Assembly: GCF_000009705.1 (NCBI RefSeq)
Contig: NC_003272.1
Coordinates: forward strand, 3,990,001-4,022,000
Direction of reading: 5' to 3'
DNA length: 32,000 bases
Source of the DNA: Nostoc sp. PCC 7120 = FACHB-418
Lineage (GTDB): Bacteria; Cyanobacteriota; Cyanobacteriia; Cyanobacteriales; Nostocaceae
Part shown: positions 1,999-24,150 of the stretch, piece by piece
How positions within the stretch are numbered: position 1 is the stretch's first letter
Layout: each line of letters starts with the position of its first letter
Translations under genes and position numbers: made by a program
The notes under the pieces: generated by a model
Databases searched by the model: none
What the model saw: only the letters and a program-made list of their open reading frames with translations
Told to the model about the DNA's origin: nothing

Positions 1999-4095
1999 TT
2001 AAATACTCGAACTTAAACCCAAGCGAAAAGTAAACCCAGGACTATAAATTCGATTCACTCGCTCATATTGTTCACCTAGTAAATTTTCCAAGTAAACTGT
2101 TAGTCCTAAAGTACGAGTTAAGGGAATACGACCACTCAAATCTAAATTGACAAAAGACGGGACGAAATCGGTAGTTGTCTCACCTGGTCGGGTGAAAAAA
2201 GCTCTACGAGCGCCACTATTGTAGGTAACATACAAATTAGCCTGCCATCCTGAGTTTTGATAACCTACGCCAGTTTGTAATACAGAATAGGGAATCATTC
2301 CCAACTGTAAACCTCTTTCTGAACCTGTCTTAATTTGGGCATCTGTATAAGTGTAGTTGAGAAAAGTTGACCAGTTAGCGGCAACTTTTAATTGCAGTGC
2401 GGCTTCTAAACCATTGGTATCTACTAAGCCAATATTTGCCCATCTTCCAGCCACAATTCCTAAGCGATTATTCAGACTGCTGCCAAAATAGGTAAACTGC
2501 CCTGTTAAATTATCAGCAAGCTTGACATCTACCCCCGCAGTCCAAGAGGAACCTGTCTCCGGCTCTAAATCTGGGTTTGCTTCCCAACCATGAACTGTAT
2601 CATAAACATATAACTGATCTAAACCTGGGTTGCGCTGTCCTCCAGCCCAACTACCACGCATAGCAATTAATGGTGTGATGTCGTAACGTAGCCCCACACT
2701 AGGATTAAGATAATTGCCAAACTGACCATCAAAACTTTGTCTCAGTCCTAAATCTAACTGAAAACTATTACTCAGATTCCATGTATTCACAGCAAATAAA
2801 GCTGTATTTAATACGTTTCTATTTTCAGTTTCGTTAAACGCAATCCGATTCGGACTAGAGCTTAAAACATCGCCACTTAAATCAGTATTTTTTAAATCTA
2901 GTCCCCAACGCAACTTATTATTTGGAGAAATTCTCCAATCATGATCAATCCTACCAGTGAATTGTTGTGTATCTAAAACACCAGTGCGATAAAATTCTCT
3001 ACCTGCAAAAACTGTAGGGCCGTAGGTGCTGAAATAATTTTGGTTATAACCAAATGTAGTTGTCAGGTTAGAGTTATTGCCATTACCGAGGCGAGTTTTC
3101 CAAGATAAACCAATATTTAAACCATCATGGTCTAATCTATCTCTTTGTAGGGGAAATCCGAAATAAACTAAGCCTCTACGACTGCTGAGTTTAGTGATAT
3201 CTAAACTTAAAGAGTTTCTTTGATCTAAATCTAAACCAATATTGCCAAAATAGGTGCTAGTAGATGTATCTGCATTTGATAAAAACCCTTGGGAGTCACG
3301 ATTTGCTGCACCTACAGGCACACGATAACGGTTATCAACAAAGTACCGCTCAAAACTAAAATTATAAGTCGCCGCACCAACTGCCCCACTATAACTAAAC
3401 TGTTGATTATTGAGATTGAGTGAGCCAAATTCTAAACTACTTGTCAGTTTAGGTTGTGGATAACCTTTTTTGGTGATGATATTAACCACTCCTCCAAAAG
3501 CGGAGGAACCATATAAAGCAGAGGTCACACCGCTAGATAATTCGACACGCTCAATAGATTCTACAGGAATGCTATTCAGGTCAGTTGCACCATGATATGT
3601 GTTGACATCATTGTTAATTCGTCTGCCATTTATAAGAAATACAGACTGATTAATTGAGGCTCCCCGATAATAAGTACCTGTGTGTATATCTGCACCATGA
3701 CCAACATCATTAATGGCAAAACCAGGCATTCTTTTTAAGACATCAGCGACACTGGTAGCACCTTGTTTTTGAATTTCTTCTTGGTCAATGACGTAAGTGG
3801 GAGTAGATGCTGGCAGGGTTTCTGGTTCGGCGATCGCTTCTATGGTAATATCTGCATCGTCACTAGAAGTTTCCTCAATTTCCGGCTGTTCGCTAGGTTC
3901 ACCCTCTGGATTTAAGTCCCCTGGTGTCGATTGAGTTAATAATTCAGCACTGGTGGTGGGTAACTCAATTTCACTCAAATACGGAATATCAGAATTATCT
4001 ACTGTTTGAGTAATTTCCGTATCACTACCCAAAGCCGGAAATGCTAAAAATAAACTAGGAAAAGCAACAGGCAGCCAAAAAAAGCTCTTTCTCAC
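1999..4095 (-). CDS. TonB-dependent outer-membrane receptor
   Basis: 698 aa with a GTG start. Signal peptide MRKSFFWLPVAFPSLFLAFPALG, then an acidic linker. Plug-domain motifs (TYVIDQEEIQKQGATSVADVLKRMPGF, YYRGASINQSVFLINGRRIN) are followed by a long beta-barrel-type region rich in alternating aromatic, G, N and S residues. Confidence 0.9.
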   Translation of the reverse strand: MRKSFFWLPVAFPSLFLAFPALGSDTEITQTVDNSDIPYLSEIELPTTSAELLTQSTPGDLNPEGEPSEQPEIEETSSDDADITIEAIAEPETLPASTPTYVIDQEEIQKQGATSVADVLKRMPGFAINDVGHGADIHTGTYYRGASINQSVFLINGRRINNDVNTYHGATDLNSIPVESIERVELSSGVTSALYGSSAFGGVVNIITKKGYPQPKLTSSLEFGSLNLNNQQFSYSGAVGAATYNFSFERYFVDNRYRVPVGAANRDSQGFLSNADTSTSTYFGNIGLDLDQRNSLSLDITKLSSRRGLVYFGFPLQRDRLDHDGLNIGLSWKTRLGNGNNSNLTTTFGYNQNYFSTYGPTVFAGREFYRTGVLDTQQFTGRIDHDWRISPNNKLRWGLDLKNTDLSGDVLSSSPNRIAFNETENRNVLNTALFAVNTWNLSNSFQLDLGLRQSFDGQFGNYLNPSVGLRYDITPLIAMRGSWAGGQRNPGLDQLYVYDTVHGWEANPDLEPETGSSWTAGVDVKLADNLTGQFTYFGSSLNNRLGIVAGRWANIGLVDTNGLEAALQLKVAANWSTFLNYTYTDAQIKTGSERGLQLGMIPYSVLQTGVGYQNSGWQANLYVTYNSGARRAFFTRPGETTTDFVPSFVNLDLSGRIPLTRTLGLTVYLENLLGEQYERVNRIYSPGFTFRLGLSSSI

Positions 4096-4218
4096 TTCGT
4101 CTCACACCAAGTAATAACAATCACTAAGTGGTATTGTTACTTTTTTTGTAAAATTGTGTCAAAAGACACGCTGTCGTATTTCCCCTAGTTTATTGCGAAT
4201 GGCTTTGAGAAATAGGCT

Positions 4219-4339
4219 CTTAAGTAAGTCGGTGCAATAAAACCAAACTATGTGAAGAGAAGTAAATAAGGCTCAAACTTTTCCTCCCCCTGCTCCCTAC
4301 CTTCTTCCAACAATAATTATTTACACCGACCTACTTAGG
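4219..4339. repeat. MITE-like 121-bp element with ~16-22-bp imperfect terminal inverted repeats
   Basis: 'cttaagtaagtcggtg' (4219-4234) against 'caccgacctacttagg' (4324-4339): 14 of 16 positions are complementary. The interior carries a C-rich STRR-like run, 'cctccccctgctccctacc'. The arm core AGTAAGTCGGT also occurs at 27189-27199 in reverse orientation. Confidence 0.3.
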
Positions 4340-4743
4340 CGGGGAATTAAATATGTCACGGAACTTTTAAGTGCTGTGACATAATATTTAAACGCCTCTT
4401 CTTACAGACTGCTGTGCAGCTATGGCATGAATCCCATATCTTCTATATCTGGGTAAGTTAATAATTTCTAGTACCTAATCCTTACCCCCACTACTTTTGA
4501 GTAGTTTCCTTTAATCCATAGCTCATAAATCCAATAGTAAAGGCTAGCGCGAAAGGGAAAACAATCAACCAAAATAAGTCTTCTAACATAAGCTATCTGT
4601 GATTCCTCACTTTATTTATATTCTCAATTTTCTAGGAACAGATAAAAATATCTGGGCGGGAATAATACTAACTCCTTAACATTTGACAACAAATTTAAGC
4701 CTAGAACCCATATTACGAATTATTATGCTCTGGAAATAAAACC

Positions 4744-7700
4744 ATGAAAACCGCCGAAACCAAAACAACTTCTCATCAGCATCAAGGTAATTCTGCAAAG
4801 CCGTTTTTTGATGCCAATCATGAGCAGAAGTTCTTTGGGGCGGGAATAGTACAGACAAAACTATTTTTTCAACCACAATATACATCTTCAGAATTGGGAA
4901 TTCAGCGTCAGTGCAGGGATTGTGGAATTGAGCAACAAGGACAACCCCTTCCACAGATTCAACGTCAACCAATTTTTGAAAGTGAGAATGTAGAGACACA
5001 ATCTCATTTACAACGCCAAGCTACTACTAGTGATACTGCACCTGTTACCTATCTTCAACCGCAGGAAGAAGCAACACCAGAATTGGAGGAAACATCAGGT
5101 GATTTGGCTTCTCCGGTGATTCAGTCAAAAGGGGATGGAAGTATTCCTCCTGGGGATGGGGATAATTCGTTTCGCAGTGATACGGAAACCCCATTTTTTC
5201 AAGCGAAATTGACAGTAGGTGAGCCTGGCGATCGCTACGAAAAAGAAGCTGAGGCGATCGCTCATCAAGTCGTTTCCCAACCACAACCAAGCCAGCAACC
5301 AACTACTCATCCTGCGGTAACACAGCTTCAGCGCGCCAATAATGAACAGCCAGGCTCACCAATCCCCACCAACTTAGAAAGTCGGCTGCAACAAGCCCAA
5401 AGCAGTGGTACACCTTTAGATACCCAAACCCGCCTGAACATGGAAGCAGGCTTTGGCGCTGATTTCAGCCAAGTACGGGTTCACACAGGACAAGATGCAG
5501 CATCTCTGGCGCGATCGCTAGGGGCGGTGGCGTTCACCACTGGCAATCATATTTTCTTCAACACAAATCAATACCAACCCGCATCCGCGACTGGCAGAAA
5601 TCTCCTGGCTCACGAATTAACACACACTTTGCAACAGGATGCAGCTATACAACGACAGCCAGCAGTATCATCAACCTCCCATACAGTCCAAATGTTGCCG
5701 GAATCTATAATAGGACAAATCAATGATTATGCTCGGTATATTCCTGGATATACATTGTTTACCGTCGTTATCGGCTTTAACCCCCTTACAGGTAACGCAG
5801 TAGAACGCAATGCCAGCAATCTCCTAGAAGGACTCATGGGACTAGTGCCTTTTGGCACGTTTATTTTCGATAAATTGCGGGAGATGGGTATTCTCCAGTC
5901 AGCATTTACTTGGGTAGAGGGAGAACTAGGACGCTTAGATTTATCCGTAGGTAGGATTGAGCGCACTTTAGAAGCCGCTTGGGAAGATATCCACTTGGTA
6001 GCAGGATTTGATGATAATTTGGCGGTATTGCGGCAAAATTTCCAGCAACTTTATCAAGATGTGGAAGCCTTTGCGCGATCGCTCATCAACCAAATCATTC
6101 AATTAATCAAAGATGCAGCCATTAACTTAGCAGAAGGTTTATTAGCTAATAATCAAGCCTGGGCTTTAATTAAAAAAATCCTCAAACATGACCCTCTCAG
6201 GAATCAACCAGTCGCCGCCACCACCGTAGAAATCCTGGAAGACTTTCTCCGCCTCATCGGTAAAGAGCAAGAACTAGAGCAAATGCAGGAACGGGGAACC
6301 CTGGAACAAACAGCAGCTTGGTTAGATACCCAAGTTGGCACATTTATATCATTATTAGGTGAATTAGGCAGTTTATTTACCTCCGCTTGGGATGCAATTC
6401 AACCAGAAAACTTGCCCAATCTCTCGACTAACTTAGAAAGTATTATCAACCAGACTATCGGCTTCCTACAACGGGTATGGGATTTCGCCATCACTGTAGC
6501 AGCCAAAGTACTAGAACTAATCAAACAAGCCCTACTTGGTTGGTTGAGTTCCTTCGCCATCGATATTCCTGGGTATCACTTGCTCACCGTGATTATGGGC
6601 AAAGATATTTTTACTGAGCAATCCGTACCCCGCACAGTGATAAATATCATTCGCGGCTTCATGAGCCTGTTACCAAACGGTGAACAGAAGTTTCAGCAGA
6701 TGCAGGAAACTGGAGTGATTCCTCGCGCCGCCCAACGTATTGAAGCCCTGATGGGTGAATTGGGCATTTCTTGGCCGTTTGTGCAGGAGTTGTTCCTGAA
6801 TATTTGGAACACCCTCACCATTGAAGATATGGTCACCCCCATCGATACATTTATTAGAGTTCTAGAGCAATTCCGCGAACCCCTGAATCGTCTCCTCACC
6901 TTCGTCATTGAAGTAGTCAAGATTGTGCTGGAACTCCTGCTGGAGATAATGAATTTCCCCAGCGATATCATCGGTAATATCATGAATAATGCCTTACAAG
7001 CCTTAGATGATATTCAACAAGACCCCGTAGGCTTTCTACTCAACCTGCTCAGAGCAGTTAAAACAGGCTTTACTAACTTTTTCGACAATATCCTTCAGCA
7101 TTTGCTCAGTGGCGTTACCGATTGGCTCTTTGGTCAAGTACGCAAAGCCGGGATTGAACCACCAACAGAAATTACCCTAGAGTCAATTTTGAATTTAGTA
7201 TTGCAGGTACTAGGCGTTTCGATGGATCGGATCTGGTCGAAACTAGGCGATCGCATCGGTCAAGAAAATGTTGCCCGGATTCGCGGCGCAATTGACCGCC
7301 TATCAGGTATTTGGAACTTTGTCCGCGATGTCCAGCAACGAGGTATCGCCGCTATTTGGGAATACATCCAAACCCAAATTAGCAACCTGTGGAATATGGT
7401 ACTAGAGCAAGTCCGCAGTTGGATTGTATCGCGCATCATTGATCGCGTCATCGCCAAAATTGTCAGTATGCTCGACCCCACAGGTATCATGGCTGTCGTC
7501 AACAGTTTCATTGCCTTCTTTAACGCAGTGCAATCGGCAATTGAGTACTTCCGCGAAATTTTAGAAATCGTAGACTCCTTCGTGGGGATGGTTGCCGAAA
7601 TTGCCAGTGGTAGCATTGATCAAGCCGCACAGTTTTTAGAAAACCTACTAGCGCAAAGTTTACCAGTGGCGATCGGCTTTTTGGCTAATCAAGTGGGTTT

Positions 7701-8766
7701 AGGTAATATTGGCGACAAGTTACAAGAAATTATTGCCGGGATTCAGGGATTGATTGATCAGGCACTAGATTGGCTGATTGATCGGGCTGTGAATCTGGGA
7801 CAGGGATTGCTTAACGCGATCGGACTTGGAGAAGATAATTTAGAAGAAACAACAGGTGAGCCAGATACACCAGAAAGTCAAGCTCTTAAACAAGAAGTTG
7901 CTCTCGCAGTACAACAAGCTTTTGCGGAAGAGCATACAGGTGCAGAGACAGAGAGTATTATCGCTAGAATCCGTTCTCAATTCCAGGCACAAGGATTAGA
8001 CGACCTCTTTTTAGAACCAAACTCTAATGGAACTGGATTTATTCTGTATGCAAAAGCAAGTCCGAAGTATCCACTAGGCATATTCCAAAAAGAAGCAAAT
8101 ATGACACAAGCAGAAAGTGAACAAATGCTGCATTCAGCTATTCGTCTAACGTTAGTTGATTCTATAGGGTTTAATCGTCAAAATATTCCTTTGGTTGAAT
8201 CCACTGAAAAGAACATTGGTAGAGGTGGTGAAGCGTGGCAACCTGAAAATCTTACGACAGAAATTCGTGCAGTTACCTGGAATACCTCTGGAGCAAATCG
8301 TCGAAACAATATCACTCATGCCGAACGTCAATTTATGAATTGGATTACTAATCCTAGTCAAGAAAACGTTTTACTAAAACTGAAAAAGCTGGAAATCCAA
8401 AATATTAATGAAAGTCCTTGTGGAGCTTGTTCAAATCAATTAGCCCATCTAATAAGAGAAATTAGAGAGAAACAAACATCCGCAGGGCAGGTTTATCTAG
8501 AAGAAGCACACCTTTACTGGACAAAACGCCATTTAGGTGAGTCACCAACCAGCGCTAGCGACATTACTATATTGCGAGCAAGCGGTTGGACTTTGCACGC
8601 CCCCCAAAATCAGTTACCGATCCAAGGAATCGAGGACAGTAACTTGCAAGAATTACCTGGAGTATTAGAGTATGAACCAGGATTTAATCCTAATGATAGA
8701 GCAGTCGTTATTCATCCACCTGCGAGTAGTAGTTCTAGGAGCGGTGGAGTAAGAACCAGGGTTTAA
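4744..8766 (+). CDS. DUF4157 (eCIS-associated) protein with a C-terminal deaminase-fold toxin-like domain; candidate CIS cargo or effector
   Basis: 1340-aa ATG ORF. Leader motif TPFFQAKLTVGEPGDRYEKEAEAIAHQV (nt ~5188-5271). DUF4157 core GFGADFSQVRVHTG...AFTTGNHIFF...GRNLLAHELTHTLQQ, with HExxH at nt 5611-5625. Long duplicated helical region. C-terminal HAE (8317-8325) and SPCGAC (8413-8430). Confidence 0.9.
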   Translation: MKTAETKTTSHQHQGNSAKPFFDANHEQKFFGAGIVQTKLFFQPQYTSSELGIQRQCRDCGIEQQGQPLPQIQRQPIFESENVETQSHLQRQATTSDTAPVTYLQPQEEATPELEETSGDLASPVIQSKGDGSIPPGDGDNSFRSDTETPFFQAKLTVGEPGDRYEKEAEAIAHQVVSQPQPSQQPTTHPAVTQLQRANNEQPGSPIPTNLESRLQQAQSSGTPLDTQTRLNMEAGFGADFSQVRVHTGQDAASLARSLGAVAFTTGNHIFFNTNQYQPASATGRNLLAHELTHTLQQDAAIQRQPAVSSTSHTVQMLPESIIGQINDYARYIPGYTLFTVVIGFNPLTGNAVERNASNLLEGLMGLVPFGTFIFDKLREMGILQSAFTWVEGELGRLDLSVGRIERTLEAAWEDIHLVAGFDDNLAVLRQNFQQLYQDVEAFARSLINQIIQLIKDAAINLAEGLLANNQAWALIKKILKHDPLRNQPVAATTVEILEDFLRLIGKEQELEQMQERGTLEQTAAWLDTQVGTFISLLGELGSLFTSAWDAIQPENLPNLSTNLESIINQTIGFLQRVWDFAITVAAKVLELIKQALLGWLSSFAIDIPGYHLLTVIMGKDIFTEQSVPRTVINIIRGFMSLLPNGEQKFQQMQETGVIPRAAQRIEALMGELGISWPFVQELFLNIWNTLTIEDMVTPIDTFIRVLEQFREPLNRLLTFVIEVVKIVLELLLEIMNFPSDIIGNIMNNALQALDDIQQDPVGFLLNLLRAVKTGFTNFFDNILQHLLSGVTDWLFGQVRKAGIEPPTEITLESILNLVLQVLGVSMDRIWSKLGDRIGQENVARIRGAIDRLSGIWNFVRDVQQRGIAAIWEYIQTQISNLWNMVLEQVRSWIVSRIIDRVIAKIVSMLDPTGIMAVVNSFIAFFNAVQSAIEYFREILEIVDSFVGMVAEIASGSIDQAAQFLENLLAQSLPVAIGFLANQVGLGNIGDKLQEIIAGIQGLIDQALDWLIDRAVNLGQGLLNAIGLGEDNLEETTGEPDTPESQALKQEVALAVQQAFAEEHTGAETESIIARIRSQFQAQGLDDLFLEPNSNGTGFILYAKASPKYPLGIFQKEANMTQAESEQMLHSAIRLTLVDSIGFNRQNIPLVESTEKNIGRGGEAWQPENLTTEIRAVTWNTSGANRRNNITHAERQFMNWITNPSQENVLLKLKKLEIQNINESPCGACSNQLAHLIREIREKQTSAGQVYLEEAHLYWTKRHLGESPTSASDITILRASGWTLHAPQNQLPIQGIEDSNLQELPGVLEYEPGFNPNDRAVVIHPPASSSSRSGGVRTRV

Positions 8767-8808: not shown

Positions 8809-9129
8809 ATGTCTTTTAAATTCAAGCACCCCCGTAAACCTCCTGTCTCCCCGGAAACAGAAAAACCATTCTTTCCAGGCGATCAGCTACGCGCCACCAG
8901 AGGCGATCGCCCAACTCCATCACCTTTCTTTAGCAGCAAAGTCACCATACAACCCAAGCTAAATGTAGGACAGCCTAATGATGTATATGAACAAGAAGCA
9001 AACGCTGTAGCTAATAATGTCAGCGAACCCAACATACAGCGTCTCGCCACAGAAGAGGATATGACGCAAACATCCATACTGCAAAAGTCAGAAGAACCTG
9101 AAGAAATACAGACTCAAGTTGCTAGTTAA
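8809..9129 (+). CDS. Small protein consisting only of a DUF4157-type N-terminal leader (no HExxH core, no toxin)
   Basis: 106-aa ATG ORF, 42 nt after the large DUF4157 gene. KPFF...SPFFSSKVTIQPKLNVGQPNDVYEQEANAVANNV...IQRL parallels KPFF...TPFFQAKLTVGEPGDRYEKEAEAIAHQV...LQRA of the upstream protein. The C-terminal tail is acidic. Confidence 0.55.
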   Translation: MSFKFKHPRKPPVSPETEKPFFPGDQLRATRGDRPTPSPFFSSKVTIQPKLNVGQPNDVYEQEANAVANNVSEPNIQRLATEEDMTQTSILQKSEEPEEIQTQVAS

Positions 9130-9183: not shown

Positions 9184-10866
9184 TCAAATCCAATCTACTA
9201 TCAGCATATCTTCCATCCAAGGGAATTTAACTATGTTCAGTCCCCACGGTAGACGACTGAGAAGGATATCAATGGATTGACGCTCAATCTGGAGTTTCCA
9301 CGCACCATTATCGTTACGGGTGAGTTTGCCTTCGCGCTGTAAAAAGCCTTCGCGTAGACCGTCGGGGCTGGTATTTTTTAGGGCTTGCCAGTAATCGATC
9401 GCTGTTTGTAATAGATGTTCAGCTTCATTTAAGGCGGTGGTGGGTAAATCAATGTTACAGGCGATCGCTTGATTTAATGGCCAGCCACAAAGTAATTTCG
9501 GTAATACCAACTCATATTCGGGGGCATCGGTTTGGCGAGTTGCTAGGTAATGTAAGAGATAAATTGCCGTTTGCTGTGCTGATTCGTCACGGAAGCTTTC
9601 TTGGTCTACTAGTGCGACATCGTTGAGATATATGTGCAGAAATGGGTGCAGTAGGACTAAGCCAGCTTGATTGATGTAGATACCGGTGATTTCTTCTTCT
9701 GGTGACAAGATGGAAGTTTGCGGGTTGTTTTGAGAATCGATTTGTTGATGTTGGTTGTTTGATTCGGGTGTGGCTTTGGGAGAGGATATTGAGTTTCTCA
9801 ACGCAGAGGGGATCTGAGGTTTACGCAAAGGGTCGTTGAGGTTTGTTGAGGTTGTGGTTTCAGGTGCTGGGGGTAGAATTTGGTTGAGTGTTGTTAGCCA
9901 AGGTGTTCTGGAGTTGGTGGGGATTGTGGCTAGGATAGTTCGCAACCGTTGATATATCCCGGAATCGGGTAGTTGTGTTTGTGATTCATTGGGTTCGGGG
10001 GTGGTAGGAGTAATTTGAGATTGGTTTGGGGATGCTTCGGGTGTGATGGTGGCTTGCTGTTGCCAAGTTTGGACGAGAATAGTTAGCCAGTTGCGTATCC
10101 ACACAGTCTTGGGTAAGGGTCTTGTTGAGGAGCTAGTTTGAGGGATTTCTGCTAGTAGTAACAGCCAAGCTTGTGTGTTGAGGAACTCATAGAAGCGATG
10201 GCATTCAGCCCACTGTAGGCGATCGCCATTTTGATTTAAACTCAACGCTTGGATAATTTGTTGTCCTTGGGTGAGTAGAGTAGACCAATCAATCCAAGTG
10301 GGTTGCAATTGCAAGACTAACTGATGGCAAAAGCTTTCTGGGAACTGGGAAACCAAGCGCTGTCTGACTTGCGGATTTGTGGCTAGCAATTCTCGTAAAG
10401 GTTGCTGCCATGTCGTTTCATTTTGTATGGCTGCTTGCCAACGGGGTATCCACTGTTGCCAGTTATTAGCCTCTACCCACCAAGGTAAGCGACCATACCG
10501 TAAAAAATATAACAATATCTCCCAATCTGCCGCACTCCGATTTTGGCTGAGTATTGGGGAATTTGTCTTAGTAGTTAGGCGATTCGCTAGATAATCTCTT
10601 AGCGTTTGGTTCACAGCACTGATTAATTTAGGTATAAATTCATCTTGAATAAATTGAGGATGAATAACGCCTAAATCTACAACCACTTGATCCAATCGCA
10701 CCACCTCATCAGCTGCTACCAACTGTTCAAAAAGTTGTGCCATTGCTGGTATGCCCTGTTGTTGCAATAAGCGACTCATATCTTCTTGCAAGCTCCAGAC
10801 ATCAGCTAGTTGCCCAGTATTTAGCTCCAGTACGGTTCGTCCGATGATGTGGCGTTGTTGTGTCAT
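9184..10866 (-). CDS. cis14: CIS tape-measure protein (Afp14/Cis14-like)
   Basis: 560 aa with an ATG start; last gene of the operon. The N-terminal block IIGRTVLELNTG...VVRLDQVVVDLGVI and the C-terminal block GIYINQAGLVLLHPFLHIYL match my recollection of the CIS tape-measure family. The middle is low-complexity and P/T/Q-rich. Confidence 0.75.
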   Translation of the reverse strand: MTQQRHIIGRTVLELNTGQLADVWSLQEDMSRLLQQQGIPAMAQLFEQLVAADEVVRLDQVVVDLGVIHPQFIQDEFIPKLISAVNQTLRDYLANRLTTKTNSPILSQNRSAADWEILLYFLRYGRLPWWVEANNWQQWIPRWQAAIQNETTWQQPLRELLATNPQVRQRLVSQFPESFCHQLVLQLQPTWIDWSTLLTQGQQIIQALSLNQNGDRLQWAECHRFYEFLNTQAWLLLLAEIPQTSSSTRPLPKTVWIRNWLTILVQTWQQQATITPEASPNQSQITPTTPEPNESQTQLPDSGIYQRLRTILATIPTNSRTPWLTTLNQILPPAPETTTSTNLNDPLRKPQIPSALRNSISSPKATPESNNQHQQIDSQNNPQTSILSPEEEITGIYINQAGLVLLHPFLHIYLNDVALVDQESFRDESAQQTAIYLLHYLATRQTDAPEYELVLPKLLCGWPLNQAIACNIDLPTTALNEAEHLLQTAIDYWQALKNTSPDGLREGFLQREGKLTRNDNGAWKLQIERQSIDILLSRLPWGLNIVKFPWMEDMLIVDWI

Positions 10867-10880: not shown

Positions 10881-13800
10881 TCAACGGGGCTTAATTACAG
10901 AAGGTGGGGTTGAGCCAACTTGTTTAGATGATGAGTAAGTCCAACCGACGATTAACATGAAAATGGCAGTACTCATGGCTAGTAGCTGGGGTAGTTTGAT
11001 TTTGGTGATGATTTCTCCTCGGTTGAGGGGAAAGAGGTTTTGTATGCGTGTGAATAGGTTATCTGGGTTGGTGCTACGGGATGGGCTAGTGTCGGTGTCA
11101 GCGTCGATAACCCGGATGATAACTTTGATGGTAGCTCCTTCTAGGCGATCGCCATTTACTTCTCTGATAGCTTGTGCTTGAATCTCATGGATACCTATAC
11201 TCGGTTGCCAGTCATCAGGCATCCGGTAAGGTGCAGTGTTGGCGGTGAGTGCTTGGCGGCTGCCATTGGGTTTGGTGTAGGTGAAAATTACACTATTAAC
11301 CTTTTCTGGCACAGTCATCGCCTCAAAGGTGTACTGGTTATTAGGATTGAAGTCTGAGAGATTGAAGGTGCGATCGCCATCCAAATTAGTACTATTTATT
11401 ACTTCATTATTACTAATTGCCAGTAAATTTACTGCACGAACTTCAGGATGAGGAATCGGGTTTTCTGTCGGCGCATCTCCGCTATCAGGGTTAGAGGTAT
11501 CTTCAACGTCTCTCACTGGCACTTCTGGTGGTGGGACGATGGTAACTCGGCGTTCCGTGTTATTGCTACAGCCTTGATTGCTGATTGTATATCTCAGTGT
11601 AATAACTTTTTCTTCCTCATCACCCAAGTTCACTGCACTGGGATTGAATTGTGGGGGAGTTGTAGGGCTAATTACATCTGCTGTGATATCTTCTTCACCG
11701 TCAAAGGCTTGGAAAGTTCCGCCTAGTTGTGTAGCGATCAGCCCTACAGGCGGATCATTATTGGTGAAGGTGTCCCGGTTTCCTGTTGATAATCGGAAGT
11801 TGGCATTGGGTACAGCAAAAATCCTCAGTTCTTGGGTGAACTTATTACTACAGCCTTGGTTGCTAATACTGTATTCCAATGTAATGACTTTTTCTCTGGC
11901 TACACCCAAGTTAACTGCACTTGGGTCGAACTGTGGGGGTGTTGTCAGGCGATTAATGACATCTGCCGAGATATCTTCTGCACCATCGCGCACTTGGAAA
12001 GTCCCGCCCGGTACTCTGGCTATCAGGTCTACGGGTTCATCATTACTACAGAATCTGGTTTTACCTTGCCCAACTTGGAAGGTAGCATTGGGTACAGCAA
12101 AAATCGTTATATCTCGGCTTAACTCATTGGTGCAGCCTTGGTCACTGGTGATGGTATACACCAAGGTAATAACTTTTTCTGTTGCTCCTCCCAAATTAAC
12201 AGCACTGGGGTTAAATTCTTGGTTATTAATGACACTGGCGGAAATATCTGTTTCACTATCAAAAGCCCGGAAATTGCCGCCTGGTTGTGTGGCTCTGAGG
12301 GTTACGGGGTTTTCGTTACTACAGAAATTTGTTTTGATTTGGAAACTGGCATCTGGTAAGGGATAGACGGTAACGCTCAGGGTGTCGTAGCTGCTTTCAA
12401 CAACGTAGGTAAAAGTGATGGCTGTTTCCGAAGTAATATCGTCGGTAATGCGGCTGGGTTGGAAATAATATTTGCCGTCTGCAAAAAAGCTACCTTCGCC
12501 TTTCAGTGTGCCACCTGTCGGGTCAAGAATAAATTCATAGCGAGTTTCATCGCCTGCACAGAAAGTAGTTCTATCTAGCAACACGATGGGGCGAGGCTGA
12601 GTTAGTACATAACTAACAGTGGGGGTCTTGCTGCTAAAACGATAGGGTAGGCAAAAATCGCCAACAACGATATCTTCACGGTTGAGTAATTCTCGACTAG
12701 TCGCTAGTTCCTGGGGTGAACCTGGGGGTAAGGAAGCGTATTTCTTGATTACCTCGGTGCGGGCTTGATAAGTAGGATCGCGATCGGCACTTAGCAGGTT
12801 TCTCACTAATTCCCGTCCATCGACGTAGACCAAAACGAATGTACCGCCTTTCGGCACACCTCCCAAGTGTTCCATCCCCGGATTATTTTGTGCGAATTTA
12901 TGGAATAGTTGCAATTCCATGATCTGTGCCAAACGTTGCTGATAAGCTGTCATCAGCCCCTTGAGTTCAAAATAATTGAGCGTATCGGCGGCTAGGCGAT
13001 CGCCCATCCTCAACTCCAGTCGATTGACGCGGATGGAGGATTCTGGAACATCCCGCAGCAAACTATAGAGGGTTTCAAAGTCTTGAAACTCTGGTTGGTT
13101 GATAATGGGGCTATTACCCTCAAAATTAACAGTAAAGAAATTCAGCGAAATAAAGCTAATGTCTGCCGTCCCTCTATTTGCTGGTAAGTCCAGTTCATCA
13201 GCTAAGGAAAATCGCAGATAATAGCTGAGGGGGTTGTTGGCTGACTCAGGTTCTACCCCATAAGTAATTTTCCCCAAAGGCAGACAAGCCAATAAATCTC
13301 CAATAATGCGCTCCTGTTCTTGGGTCAGACTGTCGCCTGATAACCCAGAAAAGTTAATTACTGTCTCAAAACGCGCAATGCGAATACCTGCGGCGTTACG
13401 CAGATATAGGCGATAGCTGTCACCGCTTTCCTTGACAAATTCATAAGCTTCTTTAACGCTGGCTCTAGCCACAATGGGGTTAAATAGTTGGTCACTTTTA
13501 ATTTCCGCCAAACTAGTCTTGTCAAAGAAAACTCGTTTGAGTGTGTAAAGAAAAACATTCCGTGACCAGCTTTCCTCATATCTTTGCCAAAGTTTTGCAA
13601 AGGTATCTTTGATGCGTCCAAAGTCTGCATTCAAATCATCGAACTGACCAGAAATATTGATATCTTGAAAACTTTGCAGATTGCCAATCTTCAGGGTAAT
13701 GACATCAAAAGCTAAATTGTAGCGCTGCTGATAGTCGAGAATCCGTTGCAAAGCCGTGGCGTTGGCTTCCCCAATATGTCCTTCAATGCGGTAAAAAGAA

Positions 13801-15311
13801 TAGTCATCTAAACGGTGCAGTAAGTCAGAATTGGGGGTGATATTGGCGTTGTTGGGATAAAAGTAAGCCGGATGGGACTGACTGCGCCCTTTACGGTAAG
13901 TATCATAACTCCAGTATTGATACAACTGTGGATAATTGAGGTAATAAGGAATTGCCTGTTGGCTCAAGGTTGCAGCACGGTCTTTACTGGGGGTGATTTT
14001 TAGGGGCGTGTCATAAAAGGGTAACAGATAAAAACTATCCGCAGCGCACAGACGTACGAGGCGATCGTAAAGGAAGCGTACTTGTTTGACACGTAACTGA
14101 TTGCCGTTATAAATGGGGGATTGGCTAAAATTGCTCCGATATGGAGAATTTAGGGCATATACCTCTGGCTTTTGGTTGGGAAGTGGGACTAGTCCCAGCA
14201 TGAGGAACTTGGGAAAGCGTCGGGTATCTGGTGTAGCGTCGTCCATCAAGTCAAAAGCCGACTCTGCTAATTCCCGAAAAGCAGATACTAACTGACTGAG
14301 GTAGTCATAGAAGTATTGTAAGGCGTACTGGGCTTCGATTTGGGAAATAGGCGATCGCCTATTTTCTGCCGACGAGCCAGACACAATATCGCTGAGACGT
14401 TGATTAAGTAGGGTTTTCAACCCGGTGAAATCAGAGGGTGCAGGATTAAAAGACGAGAAAAAAGGCGAAAACAGCCGGAAAAGATTTGGGAATGTACGAT
14501 CAATCTCATCAATTGCTTGCAGACATACTTGTTGGTAGCCTTTAAGAAAGGCATCGTAGTCAACAATATTCGATAAACGAATGACAGGTGGTGTCTCCAG
14601 GGTATAACCGAAGCGTCGCACTTGGGGAAAGAAATTCTGGAAGAAAGAAGATTGAGCCTGGAATATGTCATTAATGCTGAAGTCTCGCCACTGTTGGGGT
14701 AAAGGCTCTCTGGAAAACCCTTGTTGCAGCAAAGCCTCAGCGCTCAACTTCTCCGGTACAGAACGGGGTAAGAGAAAATAGCGTAGGCGGAAATTCCTGT
14801 CTTTACCTGTATCATCACAATCGAGTAAACAAGAGTCCCGTTGCTGATCCTGAAGTTCATATACTACTACTAACGTCTGGTCAGCCAGAAACCTAGCAAA
14901 AGCATTCTCATCTGGTAAATTCTTGAGCGCTAACCGATTATTCCCTTCCTGTTCAAAGAGTTCTACAAGTTGATCAGTTGATGCGGCTGTTTGTTCTTCA
15001 CTAGGCGCGAACAAAGCCGAGGGTACAGACACTCCACTTTGATAATGAGTTAATTTTGTTTCCGCCAGAGAAATTATATATCCCTCAGAAGTAATACCAC
15101 ACCCTGGCGCAACAACTATGTTCACATCCCCCGGCTGATAGATGCTACTCACCTCCATCCCAGCCACAATTCCCATACCAATCAGATAAACACGAGTTAA
15201 CCGATTCTGCTCATCAAGATAGGTAACAACACGATTCAGGTCTTTATTAGTCAAAACCTGATTAGGCGTAAAAATAGGATAACTGTTAGGGATGGTAATG
15301 GTAGTAGTCAC
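10881..15311 (-). CDS. Large CIS-associated distal or baseplate-peripheral protein with 3 tandem Ig-like repeats, a C-terminal beta-sandwich-like domain and a C-terminal transmembrane anchor
   Basis: The track ORF extends to 15332 through a TTG inside a dispersed repeat. A GTG at 15311, preceded by GGAG with 9-nt spacing, is the more likely start. Three ~94-aa repeats lie at nt ~11540-12375. Hydrophobic helix LLAMSTAIFMLIVGWTY at nt 10935-10985, 17 residues from the C-terminus. Confidence 0.85.
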   Translation of the reverse strand: MTTTITIPNSYPIFTPNQVLTNKDLNRVVTYLDEQNRLTRVYLIGMGIVAGMEVSSIYQPGDVNIVVAPGCGITSEGYIISLAETKLTHYQSGVSVPSALFAPSEEQTAASTDQLVELFEQEGNNRLALKNLPDENAFARFLADQTLVVVYELQDQQRDSCLLDCDDTGKDRNFRLRYFLLPRSVPEKLSAEALLQQGFSREPLPQQWRDFSINDIFQAQSSFFQNFFPQVRRFGYTLETPPVIRLSNIVDYDAFLKGYQQVCLQAIDEIDRTFPNLFRLFSPFFSSFNPAPSDFTGLKTLLNQRLSDIVSGSSAENRRSPISQIEAQYALQYFYDYLSQLVSAFRELAESAFDLMDDATPDTRRFPKFLMLGLVPLPNQKPEVYALNSPYRSNFSQSPIYNGNQLRVKQVRFLYDRLVRLCAADSFYLLPFYDTPLKITPSKDRAATLSQQAIPYYLNYPQLYQYWSYDTYRKGRSQSHPAYFYPNNANITPNSDLLHRLDDYSFYRIEGHIGEANATALQRILDYQQRYNLAFDVITLKIGNLQSFQDINISGQFDDLNADFGRIKDTFAKLWQRYEESWSRNVFLYTLKRVFFDKTSLAEIKSDQLFNPIVARASVKEAYEFVKESGDSYRLYLRNAAGIRIARFETVINFSGLSGDSLTQEQERIIGDLLACLPLGKITYGVEPESANNPLSYYLRFSLADELDLPANRGTADISFISLNFFTVNFEGNSPIINQPEFQDFETLYSLLRDVPESSIRVNRLELRMGDRLAADTLNYFELKGLMTAYQQRLAQIMELQLFHKFAQNNPGMEHLGGVPKGGTFVLVYVDGRELVRNLLSADRDPTYQARTEVIKKYASLPPGSPQELATSRELLNREDIVVGDFCLPYRFSSKTPTVSYVLTQPRPIVLLDRTTFCAGDETRYEFILDPTGGTLKGEGSFFADGKYYFQPSRITDDITSETAITFTYVVESSYDTLSVTVYPLPDASFQIKTNFCSNENPVTLRATQPGGNFRAFDSETDISASVINNQEFNPSAVNLGGATEKVITLVYTITSDQGCTNELSRDITIFAVPNATFQVGQGKTRFCSNDEPVDLIARVPGGTFQVRDGAEDISADVINRLTTPPQFDPSAVNLGVAREKVITLEYSISNQGCSNKFTQELRIFAVPNANFRLSTGNRDTFTNNDPPVGLIATQLGGTFQAFDGEEDITADVISPTTPPQFNPSAVNLGDEEEKVITLRYTISNQGCSNNTERRVTIVPPPEVPVRDVEDTSNPDSGDAPTENPIPHPEVRAVNLLAISNNEVINSTNLDGDRTFNLSDFNPNNQYTFEAMTVPEKVNSVIFTYTKPNGSRQALTANTAPYRMPDDWQPSIGIHEIQAQAIREVNGDRLEGATIKVIIRVIDADTDTSPSRSTNPDNLFTRIQNLFPLNRGEIITKIKLPQLLAMSTAIFMLIVGWTYSSSKQVGSTPPSVIKPR
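11540..12375 (-). repeat. Three tandem ~282-nt coding repeats (Ig/PKD-like, Cys-containing modules)
   Basis: Repeat boundaries are marked by 'tttgctgtacccaatgc' (reverse complement, near 12104 and 11822), giving a 282-nt period. Protein repeats: FAVPNA.F......F..N..PV.L.A...GGTFQ..DG.EDI.ADVI....PPQF.PSAVNLG...EKVITL.Y.ISNQGCSN. Confidence 0.85.
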
Positions 15312-15380
15312 GTCGCTTCGCTCCAAATTCAAAATTCAACTTTTCTCAACTCTTCTCAACTCTTCCACCCAGCAATGTTA

Positions 15381-18300
15381 TTAATCATTAGCAGTTCCTA
15401 ACGCAGTCTGATTGAGGATAGCGGGATTATTATCAGCACTACTTTCTTCGCAATCATGTAACGTAGCTTTGGGGTACACATTCCGCAGTTGAGGCAGGAT
15501 TTTCAACAGACGGTTAAGCGTCCCTGTCAAATCACAGGCGGCGTTTTCGCAACTCTCCAGCGCCAATTGCTCTAACCAGTGACGATAAGCAAGCTCAAAA
15601 TCTCGCATTTGGCGGACATTCACCCAGGCAATTTTCAGAGCGATGTGTGCTGGAGCCTCTAGACGCAGAGTGCGTTCAACAAATCGGCGGAAAGGAATAT
15701 CACGAAAGCGTTGCGGCCAGTAGGGTAAAACGATTGTCACCCAAAAAGAATAAGGATCTGTTCTCGCTAAAAGATAGGGGTCGTCTGGTTCTGTATTGAC
15801 ATCCTCCGGCGTTACCAAAATGGGTAAAAAGCCATCGCCGGCTGTTAAGTCGGGGAGCTTGGTTCGGGGACGTAAAAGAATATGCTCTAGGAGATGGAAG
15901 CCTTCGTCATTGCTGTATTTTTGAATTTCTGCGATCGCTGCGGTGCGTTCTTCTCTACTGTTGTAATATTGCGCCGCAAAAATTTCGTCTTTACCTTCAT
16001 TGGTCAGTTCCCAGCCGTAAACACCATCATCACTATCAATCAGTCGGAAGTTCTCTTCATCCTGAGCCAGTTCCATCAAGGTGTTACCCTGTTCCCATGC
16101 GATATCCTCACTGGTGTAACGCTGTGTTCCTTGCAAAATCAACTGGTTGTCTGGGTTGTAAATTTGACTTATGTATGCTAATGAATCTAATGAATTGGTA
16201 CTAATCCTTAAACGAGCCGTGCGAACCAACAATAATAAATGCTCAATCGCTGCATCCCTTTCTGCTTCTGATGTATAGGTTTGGGTATGGATAGCGGCTA
16301 CACTGTTAGTATCGCGGGGACGGCTCAAAATCCGAAAGCCAAACTCCTTATTAGTTGTTGTAGGATTAATTACCCCTGTTTCAAATAGTGTACCTAAAAC
16401 ATCTTGGTAAAAGCGATCGCGGGCTGTAGTCTCATCACCATATATTTGGATACTTTGCAGTATAGTTGTTTCCTGGCGGTCTACGAGGCGATAACGGTAG
16501 CCAGAGGTGGGTGTTGTTGCTGCTTCTATAACTAAAAATGGTTCAAGAGCATTTAGGCGCTGGAAGGTAAGCAAGCGATCGCTTTCTGTGGTTGTTACTG
16601 CTAAAAGTTTGCCTGTCTTGTCGGTAATTCCTAAACTATAGGTCTGTCCAGTGTGATCCTTGGCTGGGCTGAGGTAGCGGTTGAGGTAGCGGAGGTTTTC
16701 GGCGAACTCACTAGCAGCTTGCCAAGCCAAATACTCTGTTGCGTATGAACTAATACCGCGTAATAAAGTTTGACTATTAGTAATGTCGTTGATAACAAAG
16801 ACATAACCATTGGTGATAGTCTCTATGGCAAACTTGTATTGATTCTGATTCGCTTGAATGTGAGTTAACCAGCGTTGTAAGCTTAGTTCTCTTTCTAACT
16901 CAGTTGGGAAATGGTGAGTATATTCACTAAGGAGACTGCCTTGATGATCAACTAAGCCGTAGCCGTAATAGGTGAATTTTTGCGGAGTCGTCCCTTGATC
17001 CTGACCTAACGTAATATTGCGGTAATTCTGCACGTCTTGAATTAGCCTCAAGCTAATAACCCCAGCGTCTACGGCTTCGGTGCGGGAAAAATAGCGTTGT
17101 ACACCAGTAAAGGTAATTACGCCAGAGTTGAGGGGAATTTGTAAGCGGAAGGAATATAAGTCCTCATCTGTCGGCTGGGTGATAACTAAATTTTGCAGGG
17201 CGGTATCATCTAGCTGGGATAACTGCGTTAATAAACTTTGTAGCAGTGGTTCTAAAGCTGCGGCTCGTTCTTTAGTGGAGGGAAAAAAGCGATCGCTCCT
17301 AACTATACTCTGATTTTGGGTATCTAATATTTCCCAACTGTAATGATAATAATACTTATATGAAAGTCGTTTGTAAAAGTTAGGGTGTAGGGCAAATAGC
17401 AATAATTTATCTTGGTCAGCCTGGGCTTGTTCTGTGGTGGCGTATCTCTGTTTACTAGTTAAGGTTAAGTCATCAGAACTAAAATCTATACTTAAAAATA
17501 AATTACGACTATCTTTATCTACACGATAGTGGCTGAGGTGACGACGACGCACATCATCAATCCCCAGCAACCGCAACACCCGCTTTTTGAAACCCGCTAC
17601 ATTATCGGTATCCCAGACAGCATGACAATCATAGTAATTGTAAGCCCGGAAGCGATCGCGGCTTAAGGTGGGATAGTCTTGTAAAAATTGGGCTTTGTCG
17701 TGAATAATTTCGGTTTCTTGGGTCGCCTTGTTGTTACGGGTGGCAAACATCTGATAATTCAACAAGACATAATCACTAAAAGACTCAGAAAAACGAGCTA
17801 GTAAATGATCTAAAAAACGATTACGGCGATCGCGATAAGTTTCCGGTGCTTCATCCAACACATCAAGATAGTTATCAGGGATAATTTTTTCTATTTCAGG
17901 AAAATCCAGCTTTTGGGTAAAGTAAGTACGCTGCTTCTCCTGAAGACGGGTAGCATAATCGTTTTGTTGGGGTTGAGTCACATCGACTTCCCAAGAAAAC
18001 AAGTCACGAATATGAGAGAGTTGAGCAAGGTAGCTTGCTAATAACTGATCAAAAAAGACGAGATAAGCTTTTAGTTGTAAAGCCTGAGCTTTGCGTAAAG
18101 CTGGGACAGTTGGTGGTAGTCCGTCTTCACTGATGCCGTAGGTCGTGGGAAAATCATGATGAATAGAATAATGGTCGGCTAAGTCGTAATAACTCCCCTT
18201 CGGAACAGGAATATCCAACTCATCTCTGTCGCGGATGGTTTTGATATAAGCTGCTTGTTGTTCATAATAGCGGCGTTCCACTTCTTCCTCATCTACACCG

Positions 18301-19388: not shown

Positions 19389-19397
19389 GGAGAAATA

Positions 19398-19424
19398 GGG
19401 TGTAGGGGTGCAAGGGTATAGGGG
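19398..19424 (+). repeat. G-rich short tandem repeat (GGGTGTAGGGGTGCAAGGGTATAGGGG), a G-quadruplex-type motif
   Basis: Four G3-4 tracts separated by 4-5 nt, on the plus strand (the template strand of the operon), 10 nt from the cis12 start codon. Confidence 0.6.
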
Positions 19425-19488
19425 AAAAACTAATAACTACTAAATTTTTGCGTTCCTCCGGGCTAGTTTGTGTTTAAAAATTTTAAAT

Positions 19489-19953
19489 CTATGTTGTTCC
19501 AGCTAATATATGAACTGTTGATTGTCCCAACAACCAAAAAAACATAATTCCTAATCCGATAAATAATATAGGAATAAATCTAGCGAGTAATTGCAAACGG
19601 ATTTCCATTTGCTTTTGATATTCAGTAAACTCTTGGTGGAGAGTTTCTAATTCATGTTGAAGCTTATCTACTTTTTGTTCTAACTCCTTGAGTAAAGATT
19701 TCCAGTCAGTGCTGATACCTGGTGTTTGCTCCTCCTTGGCGCAGATTTCGTTCTCAGACTGCATTTCCCATAGGCTGTGATTGTAGTAGACTACATCGCC
19801 TTTTTGGTAGGTTTGCCCTGGTTTCCAAATTCCATGAAAGCGATCATCTCGCTTATTTAGTGTCGAGTCGATTAACTCTACAAAATAAGTTTCGGATAAA
19901 CGACTTTTGTTTTTAAATAGACTTTTTAATTCGTTACGTTTTCGCAAATTCAT
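19489..19953 (-). CDS. Tail-anchored membrane protein: CBM5/12-like motif, coiled coil and C-terminal TM helix
   Basis: 154 aa; the ATG lies 2 nt after the baseplate-J stop. WKPGQTYQKGDVVYYNHSLWE (nt ~19762-19836), heptad-like LLKELEQKVDKLQHELETLHQEFTEYQKQ, and TM helix FIPILFIGLGIMFFWLLG (nt 19525-19578). Confidence 0.75.
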   Translation of the reverse strand: MNLRKRNELKSLFKNKSRLSETYFVELIDSTLNKRDDRFHGIWKPGQTYQKGDVVYYNHSLWEMQSENEICAKEEQTPGISTDWKSLLKELEQKVDKLQHELETLHQEFTEYQKQMEIRLQLLARFIPILFIGLGIMFFWLLGQSTVHILAGTT

Positions 19954-19955
19954 AT

Positions 19956-23651: not shown

Positions 23652-23699
23652 TGAATCGGGAGTGGGGGAAAAAGAGAAGTGTTGACCAATTACCAATGA

Positions 23700-24149: not shown

Positions 24150-24150
24150 A

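Follow-up and report, generated by a model that had tools for sequence, protein, structure and literature searches.

Alr3311, a putative cargo effector of the Anabaena thylakoid-anchored contractile injection system, combines a tape-measure-like helical body with a predicted APOBEC-like deaminase end

Introduction

The thylakoid-anchored contractile injection system (tCIS) of Anabaena is a structurally solved contractile injection system (CIS) encoded by the cluster all3313-all3327, for which Alr3311 and Alr3312 have been named as putative effectors and suggested to be carried in the lumen of the tube (Weiss et al. 2022, PMC8894136). Both were called DUF4157 effectors with no further description, and both are on the list of proteins that mass spectrometry found in the purified CIS preparation. 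Contraction was seen only on lysis or ghost-cell formation, and self-directed action and action on other organisms were both left possible (Weiss et al. 2022). The present analysis concerns this effector pair in a 32,000-nucleotide stretch of the Nostoc sp. PCC 7120 genome (contig NC_003272.1; hereafter the window), and above all the gene at positions 4744..8766, which appears to be alr3311.

Other injection systems offer several points of comparison. In AlgoCIS, the tube lumen is filled by Cgo1 and Cgo2, each built of a disordered domain at the N-terminus (NTD), DUF4157 and a domain at the C-terminus (CTD), and particles without both proteins still assemble but are empty (Xu et al. 2022). The AlgoCIS cargo leaves on contraction and requires its NTD for loading (Xu et al. 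2022; PROCIS preprint 2026), which the AAA+ protein Alg15 is proposed to mediate (PROCIS preprint 2026). In Streptomyces davawensis, the Tme protein (BN159_7576) begins with DUF4157, continues with a region of remote tape-measure homology, ends in an EndA-like nuclease and co-purifies with proteins of the spike and baseplate (Nagakubo et al. 2024, PMC11126660). The DUF4157 domain itself was described earlier as the 'PVC-metallopeptidase,' a constant N-terminal domain before highly variable C-terminal toxins, including nucleic-acid deaminases, whose release by autoproteolysis was predicted and whose immunity genes are usually absent (Iyer et al. 2011; Zhang et al. 2012). DUF4157 was later found in extracellular CIS (eCIS) loci of 13 phyla, where it is highly eCIS-specific and lies N-terminal to toxins, at the far end of a 'very long linker' that sometimes exceeds 1000 amino acids (aa); EAT11, a DUF4157-deaminase of unstated clade, killed E. 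coli and yeast (Geller et al. 2021). A first-pass annotation of the window, made from the sequence, had described this last study accurately. Among deaminases, the AID/APOBEC enzymes are held to descend from bacterial toxin deaminases, and two bacterial AID/APOBEC-like proteins have been named, Wolbachia B3gp45 and Pseudomonas brassicacearum PSEBR_m1207 (Iyer et al. 2011; Krishnan et al. 2018).

The observations on Alr3311 are best explained overall if it is a cargo effector of the tCIS that belongs to a widespread polymorphic family with a DUF4157 domain and a tape-measure-like ('Tme-like') body and acts by the mechanism proposed below, an account that we regard as probable. What is new here is its toxin end, a predicted APOBEC-like cytosine deaminase, and its phage-tape-measure-like helical body.

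Results

Identity of the effector genes

The open reading frame (ORF) at 4744..8766 (plus strand) starts with ATG, and its 1340-aa product is 100% identical to BAB75010.1 and BAY68940.1 (cluster member P0245). The 106-aa product of the next ORF (8809..9129, plus strand) is 100% identical to BAB75011.1. We take the BAB accessions to belong to the original genome record of Anabaena/Nostoc sp. PCC 7120. Because of the gene order and the consecutive accessions, we infer that the large gene is alr3311 and the small gene alr3312. Sister-strain contigs have the same gene order, with DNA that is essentially identical across the 18.8 kb compared, and this order agrees with all3313-all3327 plus alr3311/alr3312 in the nomenclature of Weiss et al. 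(2022). The first-pass finding of a CIS-linked modular effector is correct in its main reading and in each detail that could be checked. As written, however, it rediscovers known biology, since the Anabaena tCIS has been published with this gene as one of two putative effectors named for it, and both the locus and the effector class are already known. The 'alr' prefix denotes the right-hand strand and 'all' the left-hand strand; the convergent layout is therefore also part of the published map. Likewise, the check on which the first-pass annotation had made its proposal depend, detection of the protein in purified CIS particles, was in effect already answered by the mass-spectrometry list that Weiss et al. 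(2022) give for the CIS preparation.

The features described below are absent from that earlier account. The word 'deaminase' does not occur in Weiss et al. (2022), which does not mention a tape-measure-like trunk either, and the text of its supplement makes no mention of alr3311, alr3312 or all3313. In the literature that could be searched, no other paper names alr3311, and none was found that ties the deaminase family to Alr3311 or to CIS effectors. Neither effector protein is covered by an NCBIfam model.

The C-terminal module is a predicted AID/APOBEC-like deaminase

The first-pass annotation had divided the C-terminal part of Alr3311 into a linker, a small domain and a deaminase, and this division is borne out (all effector features lie on the plus strand). 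A short, acidic T/E/P-rich linker (aa ~1028-1042; 7825..7869), at which the conservation of the trunk family ends, leads into a companion domain (aa ~1043-1105; 7870..8058) and a putative AID/APOBEC-like zinc deaminase (aa ~1125-1295; 8116..8628) with the motifs HAE (aa 1192-1194; nt 8317-8325) and SPCGAC (aa 1224-1229; nt 8413-8430), spaced as is usual for such zinc sites. The protein closes with a disordered tail (aa 1296-1340; 8629..8763) that has a basic end stretch and is common to only a few family members. Structural modeling of aa 1040-1340 (predicted local distance difference test, pLDDT, 77.7) yields two helices and a beta-hairpin for the companion domain, then a deaminase-like alpha/beta fold, and leaves the last ~45 residues disordered.

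A word-index search with the C-terminal 313 aa found a single relative; an exhaustive HMMER search of 1.84 billion cluster representatives found 125 members, so that the deaminase family is a small bacterial one. The deaminase match stands at the extreme C-terminus in almost all members, many of which are long proteins or fragments ending in the trunk motif PVAIGFLANQVGLGN, and the companion domain and the deaminase are both matched in 60 of the 123 family representatives analyzed. In a 22-sequence family alignment, the A and E of H-A-E and the P-C-x-x-C motif are invariant, and the H, like the S that precedes P-C, is kept in 90% or more of the sequences. When these members are scanned singly against Pfam, APOBEC_N is matched by 22/22 (best E=1.7e-9), SNAD4 by 21, NAD1 by 20 and APOBEC2 by 18, and only one or two of the 22 match the bacterial toxin deaminases MafB19, XOO_2897 or OTT_1508. 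A PDB search with the family profile yields APOBEC3C (E=1.1e-5) and after it nothing but other APOBECs, and the top 50 Foldseek matches of the model in the PDB are all APOBEC or AID, with a probability mostly of 0.8-1.0 (range 0.54-1.00). Sequence profiles and fold prediction together thus identify the toxin end as a predicted deaminase whose nearest known relatives are the AID/APOBEC group.

One protein with this module departs from the usual layout. P0164 (2703 aa) carries the deaminase module in mid-protein (aa ~1137-1472), followed by Q-x-K-C-x-x-C repeats, a second DUF4157 core with HELTH and a long region, and represents either a two-effector fusion or a tandem-gene read-through.

The helical trunk is conserved, duplicated and related to tape-measure proteins

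The largest part of Alr3311 is a trunk (aa ~316-1027; 5689..7824) that is 45-68% identical across phyla. In an AlphaFold2 model of aa 140-1060 (mean pLDDT 72; predicted template modeling score, pTM, 0.34), it is all-helical from about aa 320 to 1030. The helical region of ~700 aa described in the first pass is thereby recovered, but it is no spacer: it is the best-conserved part of the protein and is related to tape-measure proteins. A homolog search with Alr3311 returned 754 proteins, the top matches being 40-71% identical over 53-97% of the query and originating from Cyanobacteria, Chloroflexota, Bacteroidota, Actinomycetota, Gemmatimonadota and Proteobacteria. Alignments of 40 and 45 sequences contain ~100 invariant columns between aa 222 and 1011, and conservation ends at ~aa 1027. 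The trunk is internally duplicated, with aa 326-485 resembling aa 601-762 (25% identity, E=5e-13; window 5719-7029), and each repeat opens with an IPGY-x-L-x-TV-x-G motif. Profile comparison with the PHROGs matches the trunk to two tape-measure families, phrog_58 (E=3.9e-15, aa 435-791) and phrog_1272 (E=1.5e-13, aa 436-1045); comparison with the PDB yields nothing meaningful in either fold (best E about 1) or sequence (best E about 0.03). Kyte-Doolittle hydropathy peaks at aa 717-735 (2.15) and aa 915-933 (1.66), and both segments contain charged residues.

Beyond the trunk, homologs bear C-terminal domains of the types PF13930 (Endonuclea_NS_2), PF15604 (Ntox15), PF14412 (AHH) and PF15649 (Tox-REase-7). 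As far as domain content tells, a constant trunk with swapped ends is the polymorphic-toxin pattern with an unusually long constant part. Many trunk homologs end in the EndA-like nuclease (PF13930), as Tme does. In Algoriphagus yeomjeoni, a nuclease-ended trunk homolog with the leader described below is encoded directly after tape-measure and AAA genes, and in a Streptomyces locus (L066) a relative with 28% identity adjoins sheath and tube genes. Because the tape-measure matches correspond to the Tme class, and because many trunk homologs end in the Tme-type nuclease, Alr3311 is filed here as putatively Tme-like with a swapped toxin end, a likening drawn from the published description of Tme and from architecture.

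The eCIS_core domain, the leader and the N-terminal region

The domain at aa 224-300 (5413..5643) is eCIS_core (PF13699; formerly DUF4157, 'PVC-metallopeptidase'), matched at E=1.9e-31 with 108.5 bits against a cut-off of 22. The HExxH motif reported in the first pass is indeed intact, as HELTH at aa 290-294 (nt 5611-5625), and its residues H290, E291 and H294 are invariant in 40 and in 45 homologs. Upstream of HELTH, E234 is invariant and H247 nearly so. AlphaFold2 models this core as a small, confident alpha/beta fold (pLDDT 85-91).

The N-terminal region (aa 1-154; 4744..5205) is rich in Q, P, S, T and E and contains PFF/FF motifs, I/L-Q-R-Q repeats and a CxxC motif at aa 57-60. The QRQ-rich character and the two PFF motifs noted in the first pass were located by script (PFF at aa 20 and 150; QRQ at aa 54, 73, 90 and 303), with extra FF pairs at aa 30, 41 and 271; aa 1-223 carry a net charge of -12. 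By analogy with NTD deletions in Cgo1 and Cgo2 of AlgoCIS, this is presumed to be a disordered loading region. It is followed by the conserved leader KLTVGEPGDRYEKEAEAIA, which the script places at aa 155-173 (5206..5262), outside the Pfam eCIS_core model, in agreement with the motif given in the first pass. The leader is predicted to be helical from about aa 164; the AlphaFold2 model has it part-helical (aa ~164-178), with disorder on both sides (aa 140-148 and ~183-205). It matches a strict regular expression in 29/40 homologs and recurs in the alr3312 product and in an Algoriphagus homolog. In the leader region, Q153, D163, E166, E168, A169 and A173 are invariant or nearly so (40 homologs, several phyla).

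A second recurrent element is a hydrophobic-Q-R-K/Q motif. In family homologs it occurs 4.6 times per N-terminal region, versus 0.3 times by shuffling (~15-fold enrichment), and at a density of 1.6 per 100 aa in N-terminal regions versus 0.09 in the rest of the protein. One copy always stands directly after the HExxH domain, at the junction with the trunk, and a related motif (V-Q-x-K in the family consensus) stands directly before the leader; the CxxC motif at aa 57-60 comes after one Q-R-K/Q-type motif and recurs in cyanobacterial homologs. Because the leader and HExxH residues are conserved in 40 homologs and Q-R-Q/K is enriched over shuffling, these motifs exceed chance. The placement of the Q-R-K/Q motifs would be compatible with a processing role but proves nothing.

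A leader-only partner, alr3312

The alr3312-type gene (8809..9129, plus strand), which lies between the effector and the tape-measure gene, was overlooked in the first-pass annotation. It starts 42 bp after the effector gene, and its stop lies 54 bp from that of the tape-measure gene. The 106-aa product has two PFF motifs and the leader KLNVGQPNDVYEQEANAVA, lacks the metallopeptidase core and is 47% identical to aa 136-176 of the large effector. In the current Pfam, it has no eCIS_core/DUF4157 match even at E=10, contrary to its published description, and a search of 5.8 billion proteins returned only identical copies as relatives. Given the 42-bp gap on the same strand, alr3311 and alr3312 are probably co-transcribed. 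The small protein may act as a cargo or a competitor that has only the leader, or it may be what remains of a deleted effector.

The alr3312 product was also considered as an immunity protein, and this was rejected: it is homologous to the effector's own leader region, and it has no relatives beside other deaminase effectors. Directly downstream of the effector, where the next ORF is the leader-only alr3312, no immunity gene was found, and no gene is conserved after three other deaminase-type effectors.

The CIS operon and the genomic context of related effectors

The convergence on the CIS operon stated in the first pass was confirmed, as the structural genes, a complete set with sheath, tube, spike and baseplate, run from 31839 down to 9184, all on the minus strand. 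The last gene of this operon is the CIS tape-measure gene (9184..10866, minus strand; PF19268, E=3.6e-129), 417 bp from the end of the effector gene. The rest (10881..31839, minus strand) equals all3314-all3327 according to profile scans and the gene names of Weiss et al. (2022). In order of transcription, it encodes a Pvc16_N cap, a 399-aa protein, the sheath, two gp19-type tube proteins, a 50-aa ORF, CIS_tube, a VgrG-like spike, PAAR, gp25, Baseplate_J (1246 aa) and proteins of 154, 1335 and 1483 aa, before the CIS tape-measure protein. With the 50-aa ORF (MPLEIRELVIKASV...; 27198-27350, minus strand), between the CIS_tube and tube genes, the minus-strand ORFs number 15, and this small one is probably among all3313-all3327. 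For the 1483-aa ORF, gene callers choose a start 7 codons later, which gives 1476 aa.

To place this arrangement, 80 related loci from the GTDB genome set were scanned with the window's own CIS proteins. In 37/80, a tape-measure gene lies on the same strand within 4.5 kb upstream of the effector; 14/80 further loci have other CIS structural genes within 10 kb, and the remaining 29/80 have no detected CIS gene, 15 of these having less than 4 kb of upstream flank. Most relatives adjoin CIS genes, a result that goes against the refuting case named in the first pass, that the gene occurs routinely in genomes without a CIS. Three further deaminase-ended effectors are encoded inside CIS operons, before or after the AAA+ ATPase gene, and in five related loci (L011, L082, L083, L085 and L086) an AAA+ ATPase gene stands directly beside the trunk effector.

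A tape-measure gene on the opposite strand was found in 0/80 related loci. Among named relatives, the closest comes from Scytonema sp. UIC 10036 (62% identity over the aligned 77% of the query). Its locus repeats the convergent arrangement of Anabaena: effector, one same-strand gene and an opposite-strand tape-measure gene. Because Scytonema shares this order, the inversion is a trait of this heterocystous cyanobacterial lineage and no recent accident, and a search for inverted repeats flanking the effector cassette, as a mark of recent inversion, found none. The Scytonema locus (L082 13899-22707) has two further peculiarities. Between the tape-measure gene and the large baseplate-associated gene stand three inserted genes, which encode a radical SAM protein, a protein of 226 aa and a BMT5-like methyltransferase, and a separate 219-aa eCIS_core protein and an AAA gene are encoded divergently upstream of the effector.

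Upstream region and transcription

The first-pass estimate of a ~650-bp upstream region, shared divergently with a TonB-dependent receptor gene (1999..4095, minus strand), is matched by a measured 648 bp (4096..4743). The GC content steps from 0.37-0.40 in the left-hand neighbors to 0.44-0.48 at the effector start (window 4000-5000), and this intergenic region appears to contain the left-hand boundary of the CIS island. Since the GC content of the effector gene (0.44-0.48) is that of the island and not that of the left-hand neighbors (0.37-0.40), the gene belongs with the machine.

The region contains a near-perfect palindrome of 15+15 nt at 4352-4383, TATGTCACGGAACTT-TT-AAGTGCTGTGACATA, which may be a candidate regulator binding site; it lies upstream of both genes, ~360 bp from the effector start and ~260 bp from that of the TonB-dependent receptor. 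Scans for sigma-70-like promoters and intrinsic terminators gave nothing above chance, and no NtcA-type GTA-N8-TAC site is present in the 648 bp. An Rfam scan of the window found no family and a tRNA scan found no tRNA; the upstream region accordingly yielded no riboswitch or small RNA. In the 54-bp convergent gap, no convincing terminator was detected and folding z-scores are near 0, so that the convergent transcripts may overlap. Being on the strand opposite to the CIS operon, the effector must have its own promoter, and alr3311-alr3312 would form their own transcription unit, an inverted form of the usual order of tape-measure gene then effector. Independent regulation of cargo and machine, called probable in the first pass, is suggested by the strand arrangement.

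Discussion

Proposed mechanism

For Alr3311, the association with the particle preparation is published, and the remaining steps are proposed here. The acidic, Q-rich disordered N-terminus and the conserved leader would target Alr3311 to the nascent particle, where the long tape-measure-related trunk would lie extended inside the inner tube's lumen. Sheath contraction would then expel Alr3311 together with the tube, and the C-terminal AID/APOBEC-like zinc deaminase would convert cytosines in the nucleic acid of the recipient, which may be a grazer or competitor meeting a ghost cell, or the producer's own dying cell. The DUF4157 HExxH site would either cut at the hydrophobic-Q-R-K/Q junctions and so free the toxin, or the domain would serve as a spike or baseplate adaptor. 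An immunity gene would be unneeded, either because the toxin stays unfolded or sequestered or because lysis of the producer is by then already under way. The missing immunity gene fits both the DUF4157 toxin class and a system seen contracted only on lysis or ghost-cell formation.

A more specific version of this mechanism is possible but on the doubtful side. It holds that the end of Alr3311 is an active deaminase, that the 125-member family is the closest prokaryotic relative of AID/APOBEC and occurs almost only on tape-measure-like CIS effectors, and that the HExxH site cuts at the Q-R-K/Q motifs flanking the leader and DUF4157. If this were true, a thylakoid-anchored injection system would deliver a polynucleotide cytosine mutator, and the family would be a candidate ancestor of AID/APOBEC, of the bacterial-toxin kind that has long been postulated, and would supply new base editors.

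Several observations weigh against a loaded, tape-measure-like deaminase effector in general and its protease step in particular. The cryoEM map of the tCIS shows no density for Alr3311, and a comparison of wild-type with CIS-minus ghost cells showed no effect on the organisms tested (Weiss et al. 2022). No AAA+ ATPase of the Afp15/Pvc15/Alg15 type was found in the scanned ORFs of the window (all large non-overlapping ones), nor in the 10 kb upstream in sister strains (L087 1-10000). Taken alone, Alr3311 scores 22.2-22.3 bits against Pfam deaminase cut-offs of 25-27, below those of every family, and its Foldseek matches to APOBEC and AID reach an E of only ~1e-3 with a TM-score of ~0.45. The PHROG tape-measure matches could partly reflect a shared long-helix composition, and the trunk was also considered as a copy of the CIS tape-measure gene of this locus, a view given up when the profile comparison with CIS_TMP proved negative. 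As for proteolysis, the toxicity of Cgo1 is independent of its HExxH motif (Xu et al. 2022), DUF4157 is dispensable for the loading of the Cgo proteins (Xu et al. 2022; PROCIS preprint 2026), and a literature search found no demonstration of HExxH/DUF4157 protease activity.

Alternative explanations

The main alternative is that Alr3311 is a self-directed cell-death or ghost-cell factor: the tCIS would fire only in stress-induced lysis, release its cargo at or into the cytoplasmic membrane and the cytoplasm, and let the deaminase damage the producer's own nucleic acids. This would account for contraction only on lysis or ghost-cell formation and for the lack of effect on other organisms, and CIS-minus ghost cells more often have an intact cytoplasmic membrane (all Weiss et al. 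2022). Streptomyces CISs with DUF4157 or Tme effectors likewise act in the development of their own producer. The missing immunity gene points the same way, but its lack is general for the DUF4157 toxin class. The trunk-plus-toxin family is, moreover, common in classical extracellular CIS operons of Bacteroidota and others, and polymorphic C-termini are typical of inter-organism conflict. We regard a self-directed factor as an unlikely explanation.

Alternatively, Alr3311 could be mainly a structural or assembly protein, either a second tape-measure-like filler or plug or a spike adaptor, with a C-terminal domain that is secondary or inactive. The conservation of the trunk across phyla (45-68%) is far above what is usual for toxins, its profile matches are to phage tape-measure families, its gene adjoins the tape-measure gene in 37 of the 80 loci, and Streptomyces DUF4157 proteins bind spike or baseplate proteins. 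Yet the locus already has a dedicated CIS tape-measure protein, and AlgoCIS particles assemble, if empty, without Cgo1 and Cgo2. A secondary or inactive C-terminus is also at odds with the swapping of unrelated toxin domains at this position in homologs and with the conservation of the deaminase catalytic residues across the family, and we judge a mainly structural role quite improbable.

Finally, the inversion could have uncoupled the gene and left an orphan or decaying cassette, expressed but not functionally loaded, with alr3312 as the stump of a second, deleted effector, an explanation that draws on the singular convergent orientation (0/80 related loci), the lack of a nearby AAA+ ATPase, the leader-only form of alr3312 with identical copies as its sole relatives and the position of several cyanobacterial relatives more than 10 kb from any detectable CIS gene, but that can hardly be right when the 1340-codon frame is intact with the conserved trunk and catalytic residues all retained, Scytonema retains the convergent order, with 62% identity across the aligned 77% of the query, so that this order is old and stable, and both proteins are in the mass-spectrometry list of the CIS preparation.

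The preferred account of Alr3311 as a Tme-like cargo effector supplies the first concrete biochemical hypothesis for tCIS cargo, an APOBEC-like cytosine deaminase, and its placement in a tape-measure-like class suggests how the effector occupies the tube. Three oddities of the locus bear on cargo loading, namely the leader-only partner, the inverted cassette and the lack of a nearby loading ATPase. All of these points concern an organism that is open to genetics and from which mutants and particle preparations are already available.

Comparison with known systems

The proteins described here are those of the published Anabaena tCIS (PMC8894136): Alr3311 and Alr3312 are the same proteins, with matching neighboring genes and no sequence difference. 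Compared with Tme (PMC11126660), Alr3311 shares the N-terminal DUF4157, a long, mostly helical, tape-measure-like body, a C-terminal enzyme that targets nucleic acid and a gene in or beside the CIS cluster. The two proteins differ in size and in their ends, as Tme has 2247 aa and a nuclease end, whereas Alr3311 has 1340 aa and a predicted deaminase end, without an EndA-like nuclease. Transmembrane helices, a predicted mark of Tme-like effectors, are not clear in Alr3311, whose two hydrophobic peaks contain charged residues.

With Cgo1 and Cgo2 of AlgoCIS, Alr3311 shares the plan of disordered NTD, DUF4157 and CTD, and Cgo2 is of similar size (1228 aa). The AlgoCIS cargo genes, however, lie within the cluster and Alg15-dependent loading is proposed, whereas the Anabaena genes are inverted and the window has no AAA+ gene. 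The wider class of PVC-metallopeptidase/DUF4157 toxins (Iyer et al. 2011; Zhang et al. 2012; Geller et al. 2021; Danov et al. 2024) has in common with Alr3311 an HExxH domain at the N-terminus, a variable toxin at the C-terminus, which in some cases is a nucleic-acid deaminase, CIS-linked genes and the lack of an adjacent immunity gene. While surveys of DUF4157 treat the segment between this domain and the toxin as a long linker, in Alr3311 it is a conserved, duplicated and tape-measure-related domain. The deaminase toxins assigned to the PVC route in 2011 also belong to other clades (e.g. OTT_1508-like) than the deaminase of Alr3311.

The zinc site of the AID/APOBEC-like deaminases, H-A-E ... 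S-P-C-x-x-C, is shared by Alr3311, whose best sequence and fold matches are APOBEC3C/3F/3G/3H, APOBEC1, APOBEC2 and AID. The vertebrate AID/APOBEC enzymes have an SWSPC motif, of which Alr3311 lacks the W (ESPC). Unlike these enzymes, the predicted deaminase of Alr3311 has a family-specific companion domain on its N-terminal side and is located at the end of a CIS effector.

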